A model generated the notes under the pieces. That model worked only from the letters and a program-made list of their open reading frames with translations. It had not been told where the DNA came from and did no database searches. Shown here one piece after another: positions 11,755 to 21,533 of a DNA stretch of 64,000 bases. This DNA is from an uncultured bacterium. Its GTDB lineage: Bacteria; Acidobacteriota; Thermoanaerobaculia; Multivoradales; JAHZIX01. The position numbers and the translations under genes were made by a program. Location of the stretch: assembly GCA_965368975.1 (NCBI GenBank), contig CBDUPA010000007.1, forward strand, positions 96,001 through 160,000, in the 5' to 3' direction. Each line of letters begins with the position of its first letter. The stretch's first letter is position 1.

Positions 11755-12957
11755 TCAGGAGCGCTTTCCCACGCTCGTGATTTCGCGCGCTCGTGCGCCC
11801 CCCGGCGGCCAGTGCAGCGCCTCGATCTTGCCCGGCGTCTTGCCGCGGAGCGCACTCATGTACGTCCGGAGCGTGCGCTCCGCCGTCTTCTCCCAGCGGA
11901 ACTCGTCCGCGCGCCGCAAGCCCATCTCCGCCAGCGACTCCCGGTGCTCCGCATCCGCCATACCCTGCGCGATCGCCTGCGCGATGCCCTGCACGTCGAG
12001 CGGATCAACCAGATGCCCATACCCCTTCGCCATCTCCTTCAGCGCCGACGTATTCGACGTGATCACCGGCACCCCCGACGCCATCGCCTCGATCACCGGC
12101 AGCCCGAAGCCCTCGTACAGCGTCGGGTAGAGGAACATCGTCGCCCCCTGGTACACCGCCGGCAGCGCCTCCTGCGCCACGTGCCCCAGGAGCTGCACCT
12201 TGTCCCCCACGCCCAGCTGCTCCGCGTGGCGCTTGATCCGCGCCTCCGCGTTGCCCCGGTCGCCCACGCACACCAGCGGCGCGTCGAAGCTGTGGATCTG
12301 CCGTGCTCGCGCATACGCTCGCAGCACGTTGTCGAGGTTCTTGTGCGGCTTCGGGTTGCCCACGAAGAGCAAGTACGGCGGCTTGATTCCCAGATTGCGC
12401 TGCCAGCGTGCCAGCTGCTCGTGCGTCAACCGCTCGCGGAAGCTATCGTCGACGCCGTTGTACACCACCTGGATCTTGCGTCCGGTGACGTCGAAGTACT
12501 TCATCAGGTCTTGCTTGGTCGTCTGCGACACCGCGATGATCCGATCACCGCGCGTCAGGGACCGCTTGATCATCGTGCGCGCGTACAGGAACGCCATGCG
12601 GCTGGGCAGGAACTGCGGATACAGCAAGTGGATGATGTCGTGGATCGTCACCACCACCCGCGACACGTTCACTAGCGGCAACACATAGTGCGTCGCGTGG
12701 TAGAGATCCAGCCGCATTCGATACTGCTTCCACGCCAGCTTCACCAACTCCCGCGCCGAATACACCGGCGCCTTCTCCGTCACCACTCGGAAGTTCTCCG
12801 GCAGACCCGCAAACGCGTCCTTCCGCTGCGGCCCAGCGAACAGCACGTACTGGTTTTCCTCGTCGATCTTCGCCAGTCCATGGACGAGGTGCCGGATGTA
12901 CGTCCCAATGCCGAAGTCGTGGACCTTGCGAGCGTCGATGCCGATGGTGTAGGTCAA
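11755..12957 (-). CDS. GT4 family glycosyltransferase
   Basis: GIGTY, TIHD, PHKN, YEGFGLPVIEAMASGVPV. Confidence 0.92.
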   Translation of the reverse strand: MTYTIGIDARKVHDFGIGTYIRHLVHGLAKIDEENQYVLFAGPQRKDAFAGLPENFRVVTEKAPVYSARELVKLAWKQYRMRLDLYHATHYVLPLVNVSRVVVTIHDIIHLLYPQFLPSRMAFLYARTMIKRSLTRGDRIIAVSQTTKQDLMKYFDVTGRKIQVVYNGVDDSFRERLTHEQLARWQRNLGIKPPYLLFVGNPKPHKNLDNVLRAYARARQIHSFDAPLVCVGDRGNAEARIKRHAEQLGVGDKVQLLGHVAQEALPAVYQGATMFLYPTLYEGFGLPVIEAMASGVPVITSNTSALKEMAKGYGHLVDPLDVQGIAQAIAQGMADAEHRESLAEMGLRRADEFRWEKTAERTLRTYMSALRGKTPGKIEALHWPPGGARAREITSVGKRS

Positions 12958-13193
12958 GGGATCTCCCGGGGGTGGGGGTGCGCGGTGGTTGTGTCAGGTG
13001 GATTGTATGACGAAGCGGGGTGTGCTGCGCCCGTAATCATTGGGTGGACTAGAATCATGTCTCTCACCCTGAGAATGATATCTATGAGGCAGCAATCGTG
13101 TTTCCTCGATGGCAACGGTCCGAATTATGACGTCATGGGATGTTTCGGACAGTGTTCTCAAGTTCCCTATGAAAATGGTGTCAGGAGGTTTAA

Positions 13194-14225
13194 GTGATGG
13201 AGCTGCAGATGGCGATTGAAAAATTCATGCATGGCTACTTTTCGACTTGCAGTAGGAGTGACAAGACAATTCGGGCCTATTCAGTCGATTTGCGACAGTT
13301 CATGGAGTTTCGTAATCCAACTACTGTACTGGAGGGTATTTGCTCTGGGGATCTAGAAGACTGGGCCTCCAGCCTGAAAGCAGAAGGATATTCTCCTGCA
13401 TCTATCCGGAGGAAGTTTGCTACGGTTAGGGTATTCTTCAGGTACTGGTTCCGAAAGAGGCAGCTCACAACCTCGCCATGTGTGGGCATTCGTTTAGATT
13501 TGGGGCGAAGAGTGAAGCTGCCGTCAGCTGTTTCCTATGAGTTTCTCTGCGATCTACTAGGCGTTGCCCGAGCTAGCGTCGTCGACACTGAGCTGGAGCA
13601 CCACTCTGGTAGGAGACTGTTCTTGGCAAAAAGAGATCTGTTGATAGTTGAGATTCTGGTAGCAACAGGTATTCGGATTGGTGAGTTAGCCAACATTTTG
13701 GTGGGGGATGTATCGACCCGAGACTTCTCTATAATTATCAATGGAAAAGGAGGACGGCAGCGAAAGGCGCTGTTGGTTAGAGCGCATTCCCGGGCGGCAT
13801 TGTTAGACTATTTGAGCTCAATAGATATGAACTCTGCAGGCCCGCTTTTCCTGAACCACCGAGGTGACGCACTTTCTTCTCAAGGAGCTGCTCAAGTTGT
13901 GACTCGCTTGTCCAGTCGATTGGGAGCAGGGAAGAGGATCACTCCTCATGTGATAAGGCACTCAATTGCGACGATTTTGCTGAGTCGGGGGGCGGATGTG
14001 CGAGTGATTCAGGTTTTTCTTGGGCACTCTTCAATTTTAACTACAGAAAAGTATCTGCATGTGAGTACAGGAGAGCTAGCCAAGCAGCTGGCGAAATATC
14101 AGCCAGAGTTTCCAGTGGATACGACACCGATAACTAGAAATTATCAACTCTGGAGTGTGTCGAGCCATGGATGTAGAGACAGAACTGGGACTGCAGCGAA
14201 TAGTGTTGATTGCCGACTGTGTTGA
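13194..14225 (+). CDS. XerC/D-like tyrosine recombinase
   Basis: N-terminal SAM-like domain (TIRAYSVDLRQF); catalytic residues in TGIRIGEL, GKGGRQR, HVIRH, LGHSS, TEKY; RBS AGGAGG upstream. Confidence 0.92.
   Translation: MMELQMAIEKFMHGYFSTCSRSDKTIRAYSVDLRQFMEFRNPTTVLEGICSGDLEDWASSLKAEGYSPASIRRKFATVRVFFRYWFRKRQLTTSPCVGIRLDLGRRVKLPSAVSYEFLCDLLGVARASVVDTELEHHSGRRLFLAKRDLLIVEILVATGIRIGELANILVGDVSTRDFSIIINGKGGRQRKALLVRAHSRAALLDYLSSIDMNSAGPLFLNHRGDALSSQGAAQVVTRLSSRLGAGKRITPHVIRHSIATILLSRGADVRVIQVFLGHSSILTTEKYLHVSTGELAKQLAKYQPEFPVDTTPITRNYQLWSVSSHGCRDRTGTAANSVDCRLC
14129..14145 (+). repeat. Putative recombination site, left copy: GATAACTAGAAATTATC
   Basis: Palindromic arms GATAA/TTATC around a 7-bp asymmetric core; exact reverse complement at 19795-19811. 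Confidence 0.8.
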
Positions 14226-15177
14226 AGTTGAGCCTGACCAGACTTCAAGTTTCTCGTCAGCCCTAGATCAGACAAGGTTGAGCGAGAATCTTGAGCTAAA
14301 GGAGGGATTGGAGGAACTTGGCGCGGATGTCATCGTAATCGAGGACCCAGGAGATTTTGCGCTCGCGCTTGACCAGTTTTCTGACTGGCTAGTTTTCCCG
14401 AACTGGATGGGAGAGCGATCGAGAAGTCGTGCAGGTCTGATACCGGCTATCTGTGAGGCAACGGGTACAAGGTATGTGGGAGCTGACGCCTACACGAGGA
14501 TCGTTTGCGGGGACAAGGTGCTGTCTAGAGTTCTGGCGAAGCAAGCTGGCTTCACTCTCCCAAAGCACTGCGTCTGCGCCTTGGGTATGACGATTGGGCC
14601 TTTATTTGACATCGAGCCACCGTATGTAGTGAAACCTTCTAGGCAGAATAGCTCGATTGGCATATCCACGAGAAGTCTCTGCTCTTCGGAGGAGTCTTGC
14701 AGAGAAGTGGTCGCAACTCTTCAGGAAGAGTTTCAGGAGCCCATACTGGTTGAGAAGTTCATTCCAGGGAAGGAGGTCAGTATAAGCATGACTGGGAATC
14801 CTTCGGGCACCACTTCGCTCGCTGCTTGTGAGCGTTACGTCATCGATGATGAGTTGTACTTTGAGTCAGCTTTGTTCTCGCTTGAGCTGAAGAAGTATAA
14901 GATGTTGGAAACTAGACTTAAGCCCAGGCCAGATCTATTGACTCCAGACACTGTCGCAGCGTGTGAGCGACTATTCCGCCTTCTAGGGTGCCCATCAATT
15001 CTGAGAATTGATGGCAGAGCGCCAACCGCGGATCAGTTAACTTTAATCGAAATATCTCCCAATCCGCTCATGACCATGAGTTCTGAGTATCTCGGTGCCT
15101 TCCTTCTCGACGGGAGAGCTCGCATTGATATCCTGCACGAGATCCTCTCTAATTCTCTGACCCGGTGGAGGCGCTGA
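14167..15177 (+). CDS. ATP-grasp ligase, D-Ala-D-Ala ligase-like (divergent)
   Basis: CGDKVLSR, VVKPSRQNSSIGIS, LVEKFIPGKEVS, RIDGR, LIEISPNP; start taken at ATG 14167 (ORF track starts at 14155). Confidence 0.8.
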   Translation: MDVETELGLQRIVLIADCVEVEPDQTSSFSSALDQTRLSENLELKEGLEELGADVIVIEDPGDFALALDQFSDWLVFPNWMGERSRSRAGLIPAICEATGTRYVGADAYTRIVCGDKVLSRVLAKQAGFTLPKHCVCALGMTIGPLFDIEPPYVVKPSRQNSSIGISTRSLCSSEESCREVVATLQEEFQEPILVEKFIPGKEVSISMTGNPSGTTSLAACERYVIDDELYFESALFSLELKKYKMLETRLKPRPDLLTPDTVAACERLFRLLGCPSILRIDGRAPTADQLTLIEISPNPLMTMSSEYLGAFLLDGRARIDILHEILSNSLTRWRR

Positions 15178-16679
15178 TGTGCGGAATTGCGGCCGTTTAT
15201 CCATCATGCAGGGAACTGATAGATGAGGTGCTCCCGCGACTTCGGGAGCGTGGCCCTGATCAGGACGCTGTATCTGATACAACTTTGGCTTCTCTTGGAG
15301 CCTCACGGTTAAAAATTACGGATATGGAAAGGGGAGATCAACCACTAGTAACTAGCTCGGGTAGCACGGTTATTATCTTCAATGGTGCCATTTATAATGC
15401 TTTCTATTTGAGGGAGGCTTTTAATCTTCAGACCCTGACTCAAAATGACGCCGAGGTAGTCGCTTGCTTGTATGAGGTGCTCGGAGATGAAGTAGTGAAC
15501 TACTTGGATGGTATGTATGCATTTATCATAGCTGATCTCAGGAGACAGCGGCTTGTTGCTGCAAATGATTCTTTTGGTATTAAACCCTTGCATTGGGCCC
15601 GGGCGGAGGGGCATCTGCTGTTCTCAAGTACTGTTAGCTCGTTGCCAGTCAATTTTCAGAAGACTGTAAGGCGCTTCCCTTCTGGTGTGCTTTGGGCGTC
15701 AGATGGCACAGTACGCAAGGTGGTGCCGTACCATGGCCAGAGTTGTGGTGAGCTAGTCGAAGAACTGCGACGAGCAGTTCGGTCGCAAGTACCAGCGGAG
15801 GTACCTTGGGGTTGCATGTTGAGTGGCGGTGTCGATAGTGCTTTGGTGACAGCAATGTGCACAGAGTTGCGAGGCTCCTCTGTGATTGCGTATACCGCTG
15901 GGACGCTGAAGAGCGATGACTTCAACGTAGCACGCAGGTTTGCGAAGTTTGTTGACTTGGATCATCGCCCTATTGTGATTGATCGTATGATGGTTGAGCA
16001 GGCAGTGGTTCAAGTCATAGAGGCCACTGCCAACTACGATCCACTAACTGTAATGAGTGGAGTTGGTACCCTACTCGTAGCGGATCAAGCGCGGCGAGAT
16101 GGCGTTAAGGTTCTGCTCTCGGGAGAGGGTGCTGATGAACTCTTTGGTGGCTACGATGTATATCAGAAGATTCCTACTAGAGATCTGAATAGTACTCTCT
16201 TGAGAGATCAGAGCGAGTTGGGAGCTACGGAGTGTCTTAGACTTGATCGTTGCACCGGCGCGTGTGGCATTGAGGCTCGCGTTCCATTCCTTTCTGCCGG
16301 AGTTGTTCAACTGTCTCGATCAATTGGTCCCCTAGATAAGATCTTGCCTACTGCGGATCGGCGGACCTTCAACAAAATTGCTTTGCGACGAGCCGCAGAA
16401 CTGTGTCTGCCCAACTGGGTTGCACACAGAGAGAAGGTGCCGTTCTTCGAAGGAGCAGGTCTATCGGGAATGGTTGCCGAGGTTGCTGAAAGTTGGCTTG
16501 AAAGAAGCAGCATTTCTAGATCTCAGGATGAACTCCGATGCTTTGGAGTTCACTCAACTGTGGCGAGATATCTCTTTGAACTCTGGTTCGAGAGGTTCGG
16601 GGAGATCACGACGAGTTTCGAAGACTTATGTATCCGTGGTCTAACGAGGAGGAATTACTTTCGGCCGAATGGCTTATGA
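15177..16679 (+). CDS. Asparagine synthetase B-like glutamine amidotransferase
   Basis: MCGI Ntn-nucleophile start, RGPD, FNGAIYN, GIKPL, LSGGVDS, SGEGADELFGGY, EARVPFL; TGATG overlap with the ATP-grasp stop. Confidence 0.9.
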   Translation: MCGIAAVYPSCRELIDEVLPRLRERGPDQDAVSDTTLASLGASRLKITDMERGDQPLVTSSGSTVIIFNGAIYNAFYLREAFNLQTLTQNDAEVVACLYEVLGDEVVNYLDGMYAFIIADLRRQRLVAANDSFGIKPLHWARAEGHLLFSSTVSSLPVNFQKTVRRFPSGVLWASDGTVRKVVPYHGQSCGELVEELRRAVRSQVPAEVPWGCMLSGGVDSALVTAMCTELRGSSVIAYTAGTLKSDDFNVARRFAKFVDLDHRPIVIDRMMVEQAVVQVIEATANYDPLTVMSGVGTLLVADQARRDGVKVLLSGEGADELFGGYDVYQKIPTRDLNSTLLRDQSELGATECLRLDRCTGACGIEARVPFLSAGVVQLSRSIGPLDKILPTADRRTFNKIALRRAAELCLPNWVAHREKVPFFEGAGLSGMVAEVAESWLERSSISRSQDELRCFGVHSTVARYLFELWFERFGEITTSFEDLCIRGLTRRNYFRPNGL

Positions 16680-19600
16680 AGGCGGGGGCGTCAGGCCGAT
16701 TGTCCAATAGCAGAGAAATGTAGGCTCAAACTGCGCAGGTACTTCATGGTGATAGCTGCTGTTGACGAAGTTATCTGAGTACAAGCGGTCATTCCATTCT
16801 TGTGACCAGAAGTTGATATCGATCTGCTGAGCGGCTCGCAGATTCTTCGCGGCCACTGCCTTGCTGTTCCTGAGTGAATAATATAAATAAAGATTATAAT
16901 GAGCGATGCGTCGAATTTCGAGGTCTTGTGGGTCTCTATCTGCCAAGATTCGCTCGATTACTGCCACCATTTCAGTCGCAGCTCTGTATCTCTCGCTTAT
17001 AGTGAAGAGGATTAGAGAATTCATGCTGATAATCAGGCGTGAGAACATGTCGGTTGCCGTCCGTCGAGCAGAGCGAAGCAGCGCTATTGCAGACTCTGGC
17101 TCTGATCCCATGTAGATAGCAATGGCTGCACGATTATTAAGAATGCAGTGTTCTTCGGATGGCAGCTCTTTCATGAGTCGCTCTGCTGTGTCTAGCTCGG
17201 CAAGGGCTTCTTGATGTTTGCCCATCTTGGATAGCTGTAGTGTTATGGAGACTCGGGTTCTGGCTTCTTCAAGTTGATCGCCGAGCTCATGGAAGATTTG
17301 AATGCTCTGACGCATGCATTCCGTAATCTCAGCATTACACCTTGTTGTGAGCTGCGCATTGCGTAGAAGGTGGGCATAGCTCCTGCAGTGGTGTATTCGA
17401 GGGTCTTCTCTGAGTTCCTTGAACAGGTCATCACAGTCAGCGTGGCTGTTTGTGCAACGGTACGCTGACAGAACAACGAGTTTGAGCCGGAGGTATAACT
17501 CTGGATCGTCTTCGATCTTGGGGAGATAGAGATCACAGAACTCGATGGCTTCTTGATGCCTGTGATCCCATACCAACAGGGCTGCGCGGTATTCTAGATA
17601 CCAGGAGGCTCTCAATTTGTCGAGGTCTGTGGCTACTCGCAGAGCCTCTTGGTATTGTCCAGCCATGAAATAAAGATATATGCAGAGACGATCCAGAGTT
17701 GTTTTCTGGTTCTCGGTTGCGGTCTGATAGGCGGTGTTACGGATCTTCTCGAGGTAAGTACAAAGTTGCCGAATAGAACGGTTAGCTAGTGCAAGTCTTG
17801 TGAGTTCATTAAGCAGCGGCAGAGCACGATATTCCTGGCCTAGGTTCATCAAGCAGACTAGAAGCATGACGATCTTGTCGGCGCGAGTTTGAAAAGAGAA
17901 CCTCTCTTCTTGCAGTTCTTGTTCGTAGATCTTCTTCCAGTGATCAAATGCAATTATTAGGTGACGGGAGAAGTCGTCACTGTCACGAGCATGCTGTAAG
18001 AGTTGATCTTGTGCAATCGAAACCTCAGTTCCATCATCAGACACAAGCCTCCGCTTCTGAAGTGTCAGAATTGTATCTTCTACATCTAGAATCTCGACCG
18101 CAGTACCTTCTAGGTCTTCGTATAGGGTGTTTAGGTGAGACCAAGGTACGATGCCACCGTGTGAGACAATCAAGGCGAATAAGAACTTTTGCTGCTCTGA
18201 TAGCGTAGTGAGGTTATCAAGAGTGATTGCCTCGAAGGATTGTTCGGCAAGTCCACGGACGTAGTCTGTATCGGGCGCGCCTCGCAGCTCTAAGGCAACT
18301 TCGAGATCTATGAATGGCCTCAGGTTTCCCTCTGACTCCTGATAAGATCTTCGCACGAACAAGTCGATGGCACCTTCCCTCTTGCGGAGGATTTTCATCG
18401 CGTGATCCACCTGGAGCTTGCCGAGCTTGAGCGTTTGCACTATTACTGAGGCGACCGCGAAGGCTGATTCTAACTGTGTTAAATCCCAGCCATTCGGATC
18501 ATCTTCTGTCAGCTCTAATAGAAGATAGATTCCTCTAGGAGATTGGAGGAGCCGTGAAAAGAAATCAAGTGAGTAGTCATCTAGGTTCTGTGCGTTCTCC
18601 ACGCAGATGACCATCGGGAGTTTACCGGAGCAATGCAGAATGTAACTCTCAAGAAGGGGGAGATCACGTTCTCCAAGTCTGGCAAGTTCATGCCAGAAGG
18701 TGGAGGGCGTAAACTCTGCGGGCTGAGGGAAATCCTGTCGCTGCGAGAGTCTTCTACTTGCGATGTGTGACTGAAAGGAAGGAATCTGTCCAGGAAAAGT
18801 TGCGGCCGAGAGGTGAATTCGGTGTGCGAGAACACGCATGTAGAAAGATTCTTCCCGGTAGTCCCGGGCATGCTGCGGGATTGCCAATCGAACATAGAGT
18901 TGCTGAGGTGAATGTTGGCGATTCTTGAGTTCGCTAAAAACCCTCTCTGTTAGCGCACTCTTACCCACGCCGCTCGGAGCATGTAGAAGCAGAGCTTTGT
19001 TTTGGTATTCTGTAGCGAGTATATCTGTGCACAAGGCTGAGATCTCTGCTGACCGATTTACGAAGTGTGATGCTTTAACTGAAGCAGGCACCTGCCGTTG
19101 GTCGACATCTTTGGGTAAATACGTGAACTCGCGATATTCATCATGGTCCCGAGGGGCTTGATCCGACTTATCTAAGTCACTTGAAGCGAGAACTTCATCC
19201 GCATGAACCGGTCCGGTGTCGAATCGCCTCTGGAATAGAACTGGTGTATGTTGTGCCGGTGAGTGCTCCATATGCAGTGCATTACAGGCGATACTGTAAG
19301 AGTCTGGAATGCTCTCGCCTGCACCGACAGCATCATAGAATGCAACGGAGAAGGTTATTGCAGCAGAGTCCGGAATCTCTTTGCCCATTCCGATGACAAA
19401 ATCTACATGTTTCGCTAGATACTCTGCCTGAATGCGAGAGAAGCAAGCGTTGAGGAGAATGCACTGGATTGATTTAGAAGTGATTCTAAAAAAATGGCCT
19501 AGAGCGTGATTATCTACAGGACGAGAGTGCCCTTTACCGTCGAGAAGATGTAACCCTCCTTTGCCAGAACCGTGGCCAGAGAAATGGATGAAATGAGGAC

Positions 19601-19790
19601 GGAACCTCAGGACTAGCCGCCGAAGGTCCCTTATTTGTGTGGCTGGGTGATGCTCGATAATAAACGAGTGCTGACTAGCGGAAAGGCCGGTTCGGATCTC
19701 TTCAGCTTCCTGAGCAAGTTGAAGACTCGCAGAATCTATTGCATTTGCTGCGAGGATTAGGAGGCGCCGAGATTCTGCGGGCCCGTTCAC
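16674..19790 (-). CDS. CHAT (caspase-like) protease + P-loop NTPase (STAND-like) + helical/TPR-like protein
   Basis: HFSGHG and LNACFS (His/Cys dyad); Walker A APSGVGKS; Walker B-like ICVENAQ; long helical C-terminus; GTG start. Confidence 0.8.
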   Translation of the reverse strand: MNGPAESRRLLILAANAIDSASLQLAQEAEEIRTGLSASQHSFIIEHHPATQIRDLRRLVLRFRPHFIHFSGHGSGKGGLHLLDGKGHSRPVDNHALGHFFRITSKSIQCILLNACFSRIQAEYLAKHVDFVIGMGKEIPDSAAITFSVAFYDAVGAGESIPDSYSIACNALHMEHSPAQHTPVLFQRRFDTGPVHADEVLASSDLDKSDQAPRDHDEYREFTYLPKDVDQRQVPASVKASHFVNRSAEISALCTDILATEYQNKALLLHAPSGVGKSALTERVFSELKNRQHSPQQLYVRLAIPQHARDYREESFYMRVLAHRIHLSAATFPGQIPSFQSHIASRRLSQRQDFPQPAEFTPSTFWHELARLGERDLPLLESYILHCSGKLPMVICVENAQNLDDYSLDFFSRLLQSPRGIYLLLELTEDDPNGWDLTQLESAFAVASVIVQTLKLGKLQVDHAMKILRKREGAIDLFVRRSYQESEGNLRPFIDLEVALELRGAPDTDYVRGLAEQSFEAITLDNLTTLSEQQKFLFALIVSHGGIVPWSHLNTLYEDLEGTAVEILDVEDTILTLQKRRLVSDDGTEVSIAQDQLLQHARDSDDFSRHLIIAFDHWKKIYEQELQEERFSFQTRADKIVMLLVCLMNLGQEYRALPLLNELTRLALANRSIRQLCTYLEKIRNTAYQTATENQKTTLDRLCIYLYFMAGQYQEALRVATDLDKLRASWYLEYRAALLVWDHRHQEAIEFCDLYLPKIEDDPELYLRLKLVVLSAYRCTNSHADCDDLFKELREDPRIHHCRSYAHLLRNAQLTTRCNAEITECMRQSIQIFHELGDQLEEARTRVSITLQLSKMGKHQEALAELDTAERLMKELPSEEHCILNNRAAIAIYMGSEPESAIALLRSARRTATDMFSRLIISMNSLILFTISERYRAATEMVAVIERILADRDPQDLEIRRIAHYNLYLYYSLRNSKAVAAKNLRAAQQIDINFWSQEWNDRLYSDNFVNSSYHHEVPAQFEPTFLCYWTIGLTPPPS

Positions 19791-19794
19791 TATC

Positions 19795-19811
19795 GATAAT
19801 TTCTAGTTATC
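19795..19811 (-). repeat. Putative recombination site, right (inverted) copy
   Basis: GATAATTTCTAGTTATC is the exact reverse complement of 14129-14145; lies 4 bp upstream of the CHAT gene GTG. Confidence 0.8.
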
Positions 19812-19824
19812 ATTGCTGCCTGGT

Positions 19825-19854
19825 AGGCTAGCATGGTGGTAATGGGTAGTGCAA
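19825..19854 (-). promoter_or_regulatory. Putative sigma70-type promoter pointing into the invertible segment
   Basis: Minus strand TTGCAC-N18-TAGCCT with an extended -10 TG; imperfect match found by eye. Confidence 0.35.
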
Positions 19855-20045
19855 CTGCGGATTTGCCACAGGTTCTTTACTTCCTTTTCCTGCAGAGAAA
19901 TTTTGTCCCAGGCGGTTCAAGATTCCCAGCCACCAGGCATCCTTTGAGTTGCCGCTAACGTATCCTAAATTCGACCCCTGTCGCGACGCCCACCCGCGTC
20001 GCGACACCAACCAAGGCTGGCCACCACCGTCTAGGAGCCGACCCG

Positions 20046-21533
20046 ATGCCCACGACCCCAACCCGCCTCACCTTCTTCCTTCTCCTGATCCTCTCCCTCT
20101 TCCTCCCAATCCCCACCCCCGCTCAATCTCCGGACACCCACCCCGACCCCCGTCTCGGTGAGCTGATCGTCTTCACCCAGCCTGACGACACCCCGCGCCA
20201 CCAACACTTCCTCGACGCCGACCTCCCCCAGATCCACACTGTCGCCGCCAAGGCTCACGTCCCCGTGCGCGTCATCGACGTGACCGAAGAGGGCGCACCG
20301 CCCGAGATCAGGACGACGCCGGTGTTGGTCTACCAGAACTTCCAGGGACGCTCGATCTTCCAAGGCCGCTACGCCTCCGGTCCAGCGGTTCGCAACTTCC
20401 TGCGCACCGCGCGCGCCGTACCGCAAGGGGGGGAGAAGGAGGTCAAGGACAGCATCTATCGCAAGGTCGAAGGCCGGGCGCAGGTCATGGTGCGACCGAA
20501 GATCACGGAGCTTGCAGGGGAGATTCCGGACGACTTCGATGCAAGAGAGTTCGCCATCCTGATGGACGCAGGGGTCTCGATGGGCTTGTCGGAGTACGGG
20601 TACTTCCGCATGGGAGACGTGACGGTGGAGCGGTCGGACCGGGTGTTCTACTACGACTTCTATCCCTACCGTTCCGACGACGGCAAGCTCTTCATCTCAG
20701 TGGCTCTGTTCTCGCCGTTCAACTGCATCGAGCCCGTGTTCACGCGCTTCGACGATCCGGTTTCCGGGCCTTGGGAGGACCGGGTTCAGGTCTTTGCGCG
20801 GGCGGCGAGGGTGCTGGAGGTGGCGGCGCGGCAGGTAATGGCGACGTCTGAGTTGGGCGACGGATTCGCGACGATAGCGGACTCTGTGCCGACGGTGAGC
20901 TGGGCGGATCTGGGTTTGACCTTGCCCGAGCGGCCGCAGGGAGTTTCAGCAGTGGCGGCGGGTGTGGAACTCGGAACGAAGTGGGTGTTGCCGCCGGCAC
21001 AGGACGGAGACGCGCCGCGGGTGCAGTTCCACTTTGCGGCGCCGCTGGATCGCTATGCGGGCGAAGCTTCGGAAGTGAGTGGCGAGTTCGTGCTCAGTGA
21101 GACGGAAGACGGCCCATCCCTCGACGACATGGACGGTTGGGTGGAGGTGCAGACGGCCTCCGTGACGATGGGGTTGCCGGCGTTGGATGCGGCGGTGCAC
21201 GGCAAGATGTTGAAAGTGGCGGACTACCCGACAGCACGGTTTGAACTGTCGTCGATGACGGCGGAACCCGCGACGCTACGGTTCGGCACGTCCTCGCAAG
21301 CGGTGGCGCAGGGCACGTTCTCGCTGCTGAAGGTCGACATCCCGCTGGCCGTGCGGGCGCAGATCGAACCGGTGGTGGGGGACGACGGACAGCCGCGGTT
21401 GTGGGTGCGGGCGCAGGCGCAGTTGCGTATCGGGCAGGCGTTCGGGCTCGAGGGACCGGACGGACCGGCGCCGGCGCGCGATACGGTGGTGCTGGTGCTC
21501 GACTTCGAAATGGTGCCGGCGGACGCCGACTGA
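20046..21533 (+). CDS. Secreted protein with C-terminal YceI domain
   Basis: Signal peptide; C-terminal ASVTMG..LDAAVHGKMLKVADYPTARF resembles YceI; adjacent to a YceI paralog. Confidence 0.6.
   Translation: MPTTPTRLTFFLLLILSLFLPIPTPAQSPDTHPDPRLGELIVFTQPDDTPRHQHFLDADLPQIHTVAAKAHVPVRVIDVTEEGAPPEIRTTPVLVYQNFQGRSIFQGRYASGPAVRNFLRTARAVPQGGEKEVKDSIYRKVEGRAQVMVRPKITELAGEIPDDFDAREFAILMDAGVSMGLSEYGYFRMGDVTVERSDRVFYYDFYPYRSDDGKLFISVALFSPFNCIEPVFTRFDDPVSGPWEDRVQVFARAARVLEVAARQVMATSELGDGFATIADSVPTVSWADLGLTLPERPQGVSAVAAGVELGTKWVLPPAQDGDAPRVQFHFAAPLDRYAGEASEVSGEFVLSETEDGPSLDDMDGWVEVQTASVTMGLPALDAAVHGKMLKVADYPTARFELSSMTAEPATLRFGTSSQAVAQGTFSLLKVDIPLAVRAQIEPVVGDDGQPRLWVRAQAQLRIGQAFGLEGPDGPAPARDTVVLVLDFEMVPADAD

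Follow-up and report, generated by a model that had tools for sequence, protein, structure and literature searches.

A dif-like inverted site pair beside a Xer-like recombinase gene, and the predicted two-sided invertible cassettes of its mostly acidobacterial family

Gene-swapping programmed inversions are known from several bacteria, among them Mycoplasma, where Xer1 acts at vpma, and Bacteroides with its susC/D shufflons. For the G segment of phage Mu, inverted by Gin, and the C segment of P1, inverted by Cin, the enzyme is a serine invertase that needs an enhancer, and the alternatives are paralogous tail-fibre genes with a constant 5′ part. In the fim system of E. coli, fimE is directly upstream of the invertible element, and the 3′ end of its transcript, hence its expression, depends on which way round that element is. 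The locus dealt with here is an island in a 64,000 nt stretch of DNA from an uncultured acidobacterium of the class Thermoanaerobaculia (assembly GCA_965368975.1, contig CBDUPA010000007.1, positions 96,001 to 160,000), that whole stretch being called the window in what follows. In it, a gene for a Xer-like tyrosine recombinase runs into a segment bounded by a perfect 17 nt inverted repeat. The repeats are probably dif-like targets of this recombinase, and the 5.65 kb between them a two-sided invertible cassette that is both a two-state expression switch and a mobile cassette.

The resemblance to Mu G and P1 C is that the invertible segment adjoins the recombinase gene and that two convergent gene sets would be read from a fixed outside promoter, but a serine recombinase with its need of an enhancer, and paralogous alternatives, set those phages apart. 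With fimE there is the shared position of a recombinase gene upstream of an invertible element, which makes fim the nearest precedent for the feedback on flipping that an initial sequence-only reading of this DNA had proposed. In fim, though, inversion acts through the mRNA and leaves the coding sequence as it is, whereas here it would alter the last codons of the protein, and in one locus of the family only. The gene-swapping inversions of Mycoplasma, Bacteroides and Ureaplasma also have a tyrosine recombinase beside short inverted repeats, and a silent gene is likewise brought behind a fixed expression site. What they swap, however, are paralogous surface or specificity genes, or parts of genes; here the two units are unrelated, small-molecule enzymes on one side and a sensor/effector-type protein on the other, and the whole cassette is also horizontally exchanged. 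(For Ureaplasma, the portions of PMC3599477 and PMC3047005 drawn on describe gene-swapping inversions at the mba/UU172 loci with Xer-type recombinases.)

With respect to the sites, the comparison is with the dif modules on Rep_3/OrfX plasmids of Acinetobacter, as set out in that portion of PMC13141974 which serves for all statements about them here. Their 28 bp pdif sites have distinct XerC and XerD arms with a 6 bp spacer and are recombined by the host XerC/XerD; inversion and module replacement were shown there, and only between sites with the same spacer. The present cassettes are like these modules in being between inversely oriented dif-like sites with ATAA...TTAT as inner arm ends, in the matching spacers of partner sites and in being exchanged as units, the Acinetobacter modules being shuffled from one replicon to another. 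They are unlike them in that the conserved site is 15–17 nt long with 7 nt, not 6, between ATAA and TTAT, in that a single Xer-like gene adjoins the site on each platform and in the chromosomal setting. Two further differences are that each cassette here has two convergent units starting at the sites, and that a promoter-like motif is found outside one site only. No description of this cassette family was found in the literature searched; the supplements of PMC9881135 may list such loci. The accessible part of PMC7159879 makes no mention of inversion and names recombinases once, in a XerC/XerD reference.

The repeat is GATAACTAGAAATTATC at its left copy and the reverse complement of this at its right (coordinates in Table 1), all 17 of the 17 positions being complementary. 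Only these two copies are found in the window with up to 3 mismatches (shuffles lead one to expect 0.01), and only these two in the whole 7.1 Mb genome with up to 2; even the relaxed motif ATAAC-N5-ATTAT is confined, genome-wide, to the same two places. A segment so bracketed by inverted repeats, with a recombinase gene adjacent, has the arrangement of a programmed-inversion switch. Its neighbour is a tyrosine recombinase by its Pfam domains, Phage_integrase (PF00589, 9e-31) and Phage_int_SAM_1 (PF02899, 3.8e-13). With the NCBIfam equivalog models it gives 191.1 bits for XerC (cut-off 335) and 190.7 for XerD (cut-off 330), below both, and with the integron integrase model 74.9 bits (cut-off 265). 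R160, K184, H251, R254, H277 and Y286, in the numbering of the 342-aa form, are invariant columns in a 12-sequence alignment; these are the active-site Arg, Lys, His, Arg and His and the Tyr nucleophile. Aligned with the protein, solved XerD covers residues 6–295 and solved XerA reaches residue 304. The AlphaFold2 (AF2) model of the protein has a mean predicted local distance difference test value (pLDDT) of 82, and the last helix ends at residue 301.

That the repeats are no more than a chromosome-dimer-resolution (dif) locus beside a Xer recombinase at the replication terminus, with neither switch nor cassette, would fit the Xer-like nature of the protein and the ATAA...TTAT inner arm ends typical of dif-type sites (compare Table 1 of PMC13141974). 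It is nevertheless extremely unlikely. The element is a low-GC island in a genome of 65% GC, its cargo varies by locus, and two-cassette arrays exist. At least four metagenome-assembled genomes (MAGs) have two separate loci with different spacers (L031/L035, L032/L101, L070/L089 and L072/L079; labels of this kind are the numbering of homologous loci used here), and the window's own genome holds two further Xer-like genes. A weaker point is that, over the 18 kb profiled, there is no turn of cumulative GC skew at the locus.

A scan limited to one genome per species found 80 loci with homologues of the window recombinase. In related genomes the homologues are likewise in low-GC islands with a perfect inverted pair, at least one perfect dif-like pair being beside the recombinase gene in 56 of the 80 loci. 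Of the other 24, most are truncated by the end of a contig on the side that matters; five (L043, L047, L056, L058 and L104) have no pair despite 10 kb on both sides. Two layouts recur. In the downstream layout, the segment follows the recombinase gene, as it does in 16 loci: the window, twelve loci of the genome scan, a relative (L022) and two from metagenomes (L106 and L111). In 15 of these the site starts 3–122 nt past the recombinase stop codon, the window being the exception with its site inside the open reading frame (ORF). In the 40 loci of upstream layout, the segment comes before the recombinase gene, at 85–540 nt from its start. A quick tree covered 76 recombinases, 5 of 81 rows having been dropped for length or internal stops; all the upstream-layout loci that it contains fall within one 55-row clade (Shimodaira–Hasegawa-like approximate likelihood ratio test, SH-aLRT, 96) and the downstream-layout loci are outside it. 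The hosts are mostly Acidobacteriota, with Planctomycetota and Pseudomonadota also represented, and the setting is chromosomal, on contigs of up to Mb size. A metagenome scan with the window recombinase alone gave 144 pattern matches and no relative; a second, with an alignment as query, found mostly generic Xer genes and added only L106, L111 and L170 as usable loci. Among viral contigs there was one relative, at 40% identity and without a site, and the family is not notably viral. (A dif-like site was also seen at L192:8964-8978, 100 nt past the match of a 34%-identical recombinase, on a viral-classed contig that ends 11 nt after the site.)

It is the homologous loci, and not the window's genome, that make the segment very probably a real inversion substrate. 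Between L040 and L081 the left flank is co-linear at 77% identity and the recombinase at 68%, while the 1580 nt segment is inverted, at 75.6%, with its ends at the sites. L068 and L074, and again L044 and L068, similarly have an inverted segment between co-linear orthologous loci. Three of the four cassette groups with several members occur both ways round relative to the recombinase. Contig ends also tend to coincide with sites: among 45 in the 80 loci, 6 lie no more than 40 nt from a site (0.25 expected), and for five of these the distance is 5 nt or less. The contig of L074 starts with a 111 nt perfect inverted copy (1-111 / 1853-1963) of the recombinase-side flank plus site, so that both junctions are in one assembly. 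These contig breaks and the L074 end are suggestive of mixed orientations within samples, and only suggestive, as assemblers can also misbehave at repeats. At L080:130 and L084:126, k141 contigs end 125–129 nt inside the segment beyond the site, which would be about the tip length expected for a minority orientation at k=141. For the family, the alignments of L040/L081, L068/L074 and L044/L068 place one segment in opposite orientations with breakpoints at the repeats. For the window's own cassette no orthologue was found when one was sought with the CHAT protein described below in 400 genomes of the class, the best match being 47% identical and over the N-terminal domain only.

The sites of 63 segments, whose partners were detected as perfect inverted copies with the spacer included, have nearly invariant arms, ATAAC and ATTAT, usually preceded by G and followed by C; further out, positions −5 and −4 on the outer side are conserved as T and A. 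The 5 nt spacer between the arms has 24 forms, is locus-specific and is identical within a pair (a matter of the detection criterion). Conserved arms and a variable spacer common to partner sites fit the crossover region of a tyrosine recombinase. Coding density between the sites is near 1, and 51 of 59 segments are strictly convergent, the two units commonly overlapping tail to tail or being 1–2 nt apart. At the other ends of the units, start codons are a median of 4–5 nt from the site core, about two thirds of them within 12 nt, and in at least 10 segments the ATG takes in the final two bases of the core. Bounded by inverted copies of one site and with convergent genes, the cassettes differ from those of integrons, which are co-oriented and have attI and attC sites and an IntI-type integrase. 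Spacers with GG or GAG are present in 41 of the 63 segments, TAGGA alone 17 times, and are 6–12 nt before start codons, which might give the crossover region a second role in ribosome binding. A Shine-Dalgarno (SD)-like spacer was considered as the explanation for start codon closeness and discarded, since start distance is the same for SD-like and other spacers (medians 4 and 5 nt).

On one side of the family's cassettes, the cargo is typically enzymes: ATP-grasp, AsnB and PLP-dependent (pyridoxal phosphate) enzymes, 2-oxoglutarate (2OG)/PhyH/TauD oxygenases, methyl-, glycosyl-, carbamoyl- and prenyl-transferases, and CDP-alcohol phosphatidyltransferase. On the other there is a large sensor-type protein (AAA_16 or NACHT STAND with TPR, WD40, CHAT or SIR2) or, alternatively, a pentapeptide-repeat protein or one without a Pfam match. 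Pair types recur jointly: PhyH plus aminotransferase is opposed to a pentapeptide protein in both L060 and L170 (53% and 46% identity).

In the upstream layout, a sigma70-like TTGNNN-N16-18-NATAAT reads from the recombinase-side flank into the segment in 19 of 40 loci, in 16 of the 19 with its end 40–52 nt from the site, while the far flank has the motif in 1 of 40. In L064 this motif also occurs in the 124 nt that separate its two cassettes, pointing into the outer one and 37 nt from the site of the latter. A second motif, TTGAAA-N17-TA(G/A/C)ACT, ends about 78–106 nt upstream of the recombinase start in upstream-layout loci (L032, L038, L057, L064, L069, L078, L081, L085, L088, L092, L097, L100, L101 and others) and presumably drives the recombinase gene itself, being divergent from the motif that reads into the segment. 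No clear promoter is seen upstream of the recombinases in the 16 downstream-layout loci.

The cassettes also move. Between L088 and L065 there is 89.6% identity that stops at the sites, their flanks being unrelated and their recombinases only 68% identical; what they share is the outer cassette of a two-cassette array in L065. Tandem cassettes with different spacers are present in L064 (5719-9745) and L065 (4821-9505), and L077 also has two per locus, each with its own spacer. The recombinases of L043 and L045 (10001-10975) are 92% identical in DNA and have their upstream chromosomal context in common, with downstream content that is entirely different: a site pair and a 2.3 kb cassette in L045, no recognisable site in L043. 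At several loci the recombinase has host-like GC and the cargo a lower one. The identity limited to the L088/L065 cassette, the L043/L045 contrast and the GC differences, together with the constancy of the gene pair within a cassette type, are what would be expected if the sites served mainly for cassette movement by double crossover, as proposed for dif modules, with inversion a tolerated side reaction and both units on signals of their own. Start codons that abut or overlap the sites, however, leave no room for a cassette's own promoter, and convergent units overlapping tail to tail leave none for a terminator between them; neither would the one-sided promoter-like motif at a fixed distance outside the site be accounted for. 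As an alternative to a switch, movement is therefore unlikely, but a mobility role of the sites may coexist with one.

The switch reading is that a flip exchanges the unit which faces the fixed recombinase-side flank, the facing unit being expressed and the other silent and transcribed antisense. Such a toggle is deduced from the one-sidedness of the promoter-like motif, from units that start at the site and from the absence of terminator space between them. The same paired sites would make the cassette exchangeable between platforms. For the window, the side which drives expression is suggested by analogy and by the little room between recombinase and site: with a gap of only 3–122 nt in the 15 other downstream-layout loci, and the site inside the ORF here, the simplest assumption is a transcript shared with the recombinase. 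As the segment now lies, that transcript would include the ATP-grasp/AsnB unit; the CHAT-STAND-TPR gene, lacking an SD sequence and antisense to the read-through, would be silent or weak. After a flip the CHAT gene would come immediately after the recombinase gene, where termination-reinitiation at an overlapping stop and start could provide for its translation.

Several observations count against this. No promoter is recognised on either flank of the window element, consensus scans for promoters and terminators doing no better than shuffles (the best on the right flank is 7/12, and no sigma70-like promoter upstream of the recombinase exceeds shuffles). In the downstream layout generally, the promoter motif of the upstream layout is present in 0 of 16 near flanks and 1 of 16 far flanks. 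The units of one cassette type stay paired across loci, which could mean that they work jointly and are not alternatives. The assembly of this organism has one orientation only. Among 5.8 billion proteins searched, the sole entry for the window recombinase is the 342-aa form, from one contig, and the 317/318-aa form expected after inversion is not on record, the next match being 48% identical; the protein is on a long branch, at most 48% identical to any other recorded. The single assembled orientation, the divergent long-branch recombinase and the loss from its ORF of the usual stop before the site would suit a fossil, sites and recombinase left over from a once-mobile cassette and no longer recombining in this genome. 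But the two 17 nt copies are still identical, the conserved active-site columns are all kept and all four ORFs of the island are intact, so this is very unlikely.

What the flip would do to the recombinase itself was the starting point for the analysis, and a script that reverse-complements the predicted cassette (Table 1) reproduced what had been worked out by eye. As now oriented, the protein of 342 aa (343 from the GTG) ends ...PITRNYQLWSVSSHGCRDRTGTAANSVDCRLC (...PITRNYQLWSV...CRLC); flipped, it is 317 aa (318 from the GTG) and ends ...PITRNYR, with a TAG that shares its G with the CHAT GTG, a 1 nt overlap (TAGTG). The final residues which depend on orientation are thus 26 aa at present and 1 aa after the flip. 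The 59 nt given for the overlap with the ATP-grasp gene holds for the ATG start of the latter and becomes 71 nt with its alternative GTG (Table 1). The left site has a stop, TAA or TAG, in 2 of 3 frames and the recombinase uses the sole open one; an outside ORF entering the site in either of the others would terminate within it.

The sequence-only reading went on to suggest that the two isoforms could differ in activity, giving feedback control. In its full form, such a model has the switch feed back on its own rate of flipping and the coupling of recombinase and CHAT gene selected. Both isoforms and the flipped overlap are real in silico. The 14 aa after the conserved His-Pro in the flipped form are near the median of 13.5 for the tails of 60 homologues (range 4–42 aa), and the 39 aa in the present form are exceeded by only 1 of the 60. 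C-terminal segments of tyrosine recombinases are known to control catalysis. In the portion of a survey of programmed inversions drawn on here, recombinase genes themselves are enriched among predicted targets, tyrosine recombinase genes with an odds ratio of 2.7 (Milman et al., PMC9881135). Against such a device, the ORF reads into the site in the window alone, 1 of 56 loci, and no tail motif is conserved. A check proposed in that reading was whether homologues end shortly after an NY motif; no such motif is conserved, and the 60 tails are unrelated in sequence. Solved XerA puts the end of the fold 13 residues before the start of the variable part, and residues 320–342 are modelled as coil with a pLDDT below 50, though the tail is missing from the 11 other rows of the AF2 alignment. 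What the present form has in addition, 26 aa, comes from reading the 5′ end of the ATP-grasp gene out of frame, and with one frame in three passing the site free of stops, chance read-through is not rare. Since read-through is confined to one locus, no motif is shared and the changing residues are beyond the fold and predicted to be disordered, isoform feedback is unlikely, and the full proposal, selected coupling included, quite improbable. The tail change is probably a locus-specific by-product and not a regulatory device.

Translation of the CHAT protein is a separate matter. That its gene has no SD sequence was borne out: GGAG, GAGG, AGGA, GGGG and AAGG are all absent from the 40 nt upstream of the GTG. 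The earlier account tied this absence to the present orientation; the repeat in fact occupies positions −5 to −21 from the GTG, which leaves the SD region unchanged by a flip, and no SD sequence is made. The start codon itself stands up well, GTG 19790 being the sole in-frame ATG, GTG or TTG before codon 135, with the putative catalytic His 71 and Cys 114 both preceding that codon and the N-terminus aligning with the start of the L022 homologue; no other start is usable. The closeness of start and repeat, 4 nt, is the family norm (median 4–5 nt) and not an adaptation particular to coupling. As far as the letters of the DNA go, it is plausible that CHAT translation is coupled to the recombinase stop at TAGTG in the flipped state, an overlap of the same kind as the TGATG junction of ATP-grasp and AsnB genes within the element. 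Of the earlier interpretation, then, inversion is very likely, coupling plausible and isoform feedback unlikely.

The island has about 7 kb of about 50% GC (about 12990-19990 by GC bins of the window) and four genes, for the recombinase, an ATP-grasp protein, an AsnB-like amidotransferase and a 1038-aa CHAT-like/STAND/TPR protein (Table 1). The cassette units are convergent, ATP-grasp plus AsnB-like versus CHAT-STAND-TPR, and meet in a 6 nt overlap of the AsnB and CHAT genes. NCBIfam matches of the ATP-grasp protein are under their cut-offs; GGAG is 11 nt upstream of its ATG. At the TGATG (15167-15179 region), the ATP-grasp stop overlaps the AsnB ATG, with GGAGG 5 nt upstream. Read from that ATG, 15177, the AsnB-like protein has Met-Cys-Gly as its first residues, so that the true start is probably there and not at the GTG 15165 given by the ORF tool. 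The CHAT domain reaches 22.9 bits, the Pfam cut-off being 24, with SGHG at residue 71 and NAC at residue 114 present. The L022 homologue has 33% identity in the N-terminal 200 residues and is matched by the PADLOC 'chat' model (1.6e-6); for the four window proteins themselves PADLOC gave no match. Of four non-self matches in the search with the CHAT protein alone, two also have a dif-like site just upstream: these sites, L188:1455-1469 and L189:1457-1471, are about 30 nt before the best CHAT-domain homologues (47% and 44% identity), and the search was independent of the recombinase.

Table 1. Features of the island, in window coordinates
Feature	Positions	Strand	Remarks
Island left edge and recombinase 5′ region	12990..13193	+	GC drops from ~0.65 to ~0.50; AGGAGG at 13183-13188
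Xer-like tyrosine recombinase	13194..14225	+	343 aa from GTG 13194, 342 aa from ATG 13197; last 26 codons inside the predicted invertible segment
Left recombination site (IR-L), within the recombinase ORF	14129..14145	+	arms GATAAC/ATTATC, spacer TAGAA
Predicted invertible cassette, 5649 nt	14146..19794		perfect inverted repeat at both ends; family-level inversion and exchange at such sites
ATP-grasp (D-Ala-D-Ala-ligase-like)	14167..15177	+	Pfam Dala_Dala_lig_C 3.8e-15; alternative start GTG 14155
AsnB-like glutamine amidotransferase/asparagine synthase	15177..16679	+	Pfam Asn_synthase 1.1e-52 and GATase_7; TIGR01536 285 bits, cut-off 267
CHAT-like caspase-fold, STAND (AAA_16) NTPase and TPR protein, 1038 aa	16674..19790	-	Pfam AAA_16 3.4e-9, CHAT 6.9e-5, TPR_12; GTG start
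Right recombination site (IR-R)	19795..19811	-	reverse complement of IR-L; 4 nt upstream of the CHAT GTG
Right flank of the island	19812..19990		GC still below that of the host; no promoter recognised

Some observations concern the surroundings. The stretches 13082-13096, some 100 nt before the recombinase gene begins, and 19812-19826, immediately outside the right site, match in inverted orientation at 13 of 15 positions. They were considered as possible terminal repeats of the island and rejected, since the match is barely over shuffles (maximum 12) and is absent from the 15 other loci of the same layout. The host glycosyltransferase immediately left of the island (11755-12957, minus strand) has a weak Pfam GT4-conflict match (1.4e-10), as do the cargo glycosyltransferases of L076 and L057 to the same model; this probably reflects only shared GT4 ancestry. 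Rfam has no match in 12700-20300, no public sequencing runs containing the island are listed, and comparison with an empty site through the right-hand neighbour gene gave no match in 5 family genomes.

The change of tail is real and looks accidental, and the value of following it up is mainly corrective; the family is the more interesting result. Inversion switches and Xer-dependent dif modules are each known, and their combination in one system was not found in the literature searched: a private Xer-like recombinase, minimal dif-like sites, two-sided cassettes without room for promoters, a promoter outside, and cassette exchange and arrays. A wider reading, put forward tentatively, is that this is an undescribed integron-like platform, widespread in Acidobacteriota, in which a private Xer-like recombinase serves slots with a fixed outward promoter and exchangeable either/or cassettes with cassette-specific spacers. 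Each cassette would set envelope or small-molecule enzymes against a STAND, CHAT, WD40 or pentapeptide sensor-type protein, letting a clonal population hedge between exclusive states, possibly two anti-phage strategies; the copy in the window would also rewrite its own recombinase. A compact site of about 17 nt with a single recombinase could serve as an orthogonal tool for flipping and exchange. For the organisms themselves, the design is common in abundant and poorly studied soil phyla, and with STAND/CHAT/SIR2-type cargo resembling bacterial immunity proteins it may be a general way to phase-vary costly defence or envelope functions.

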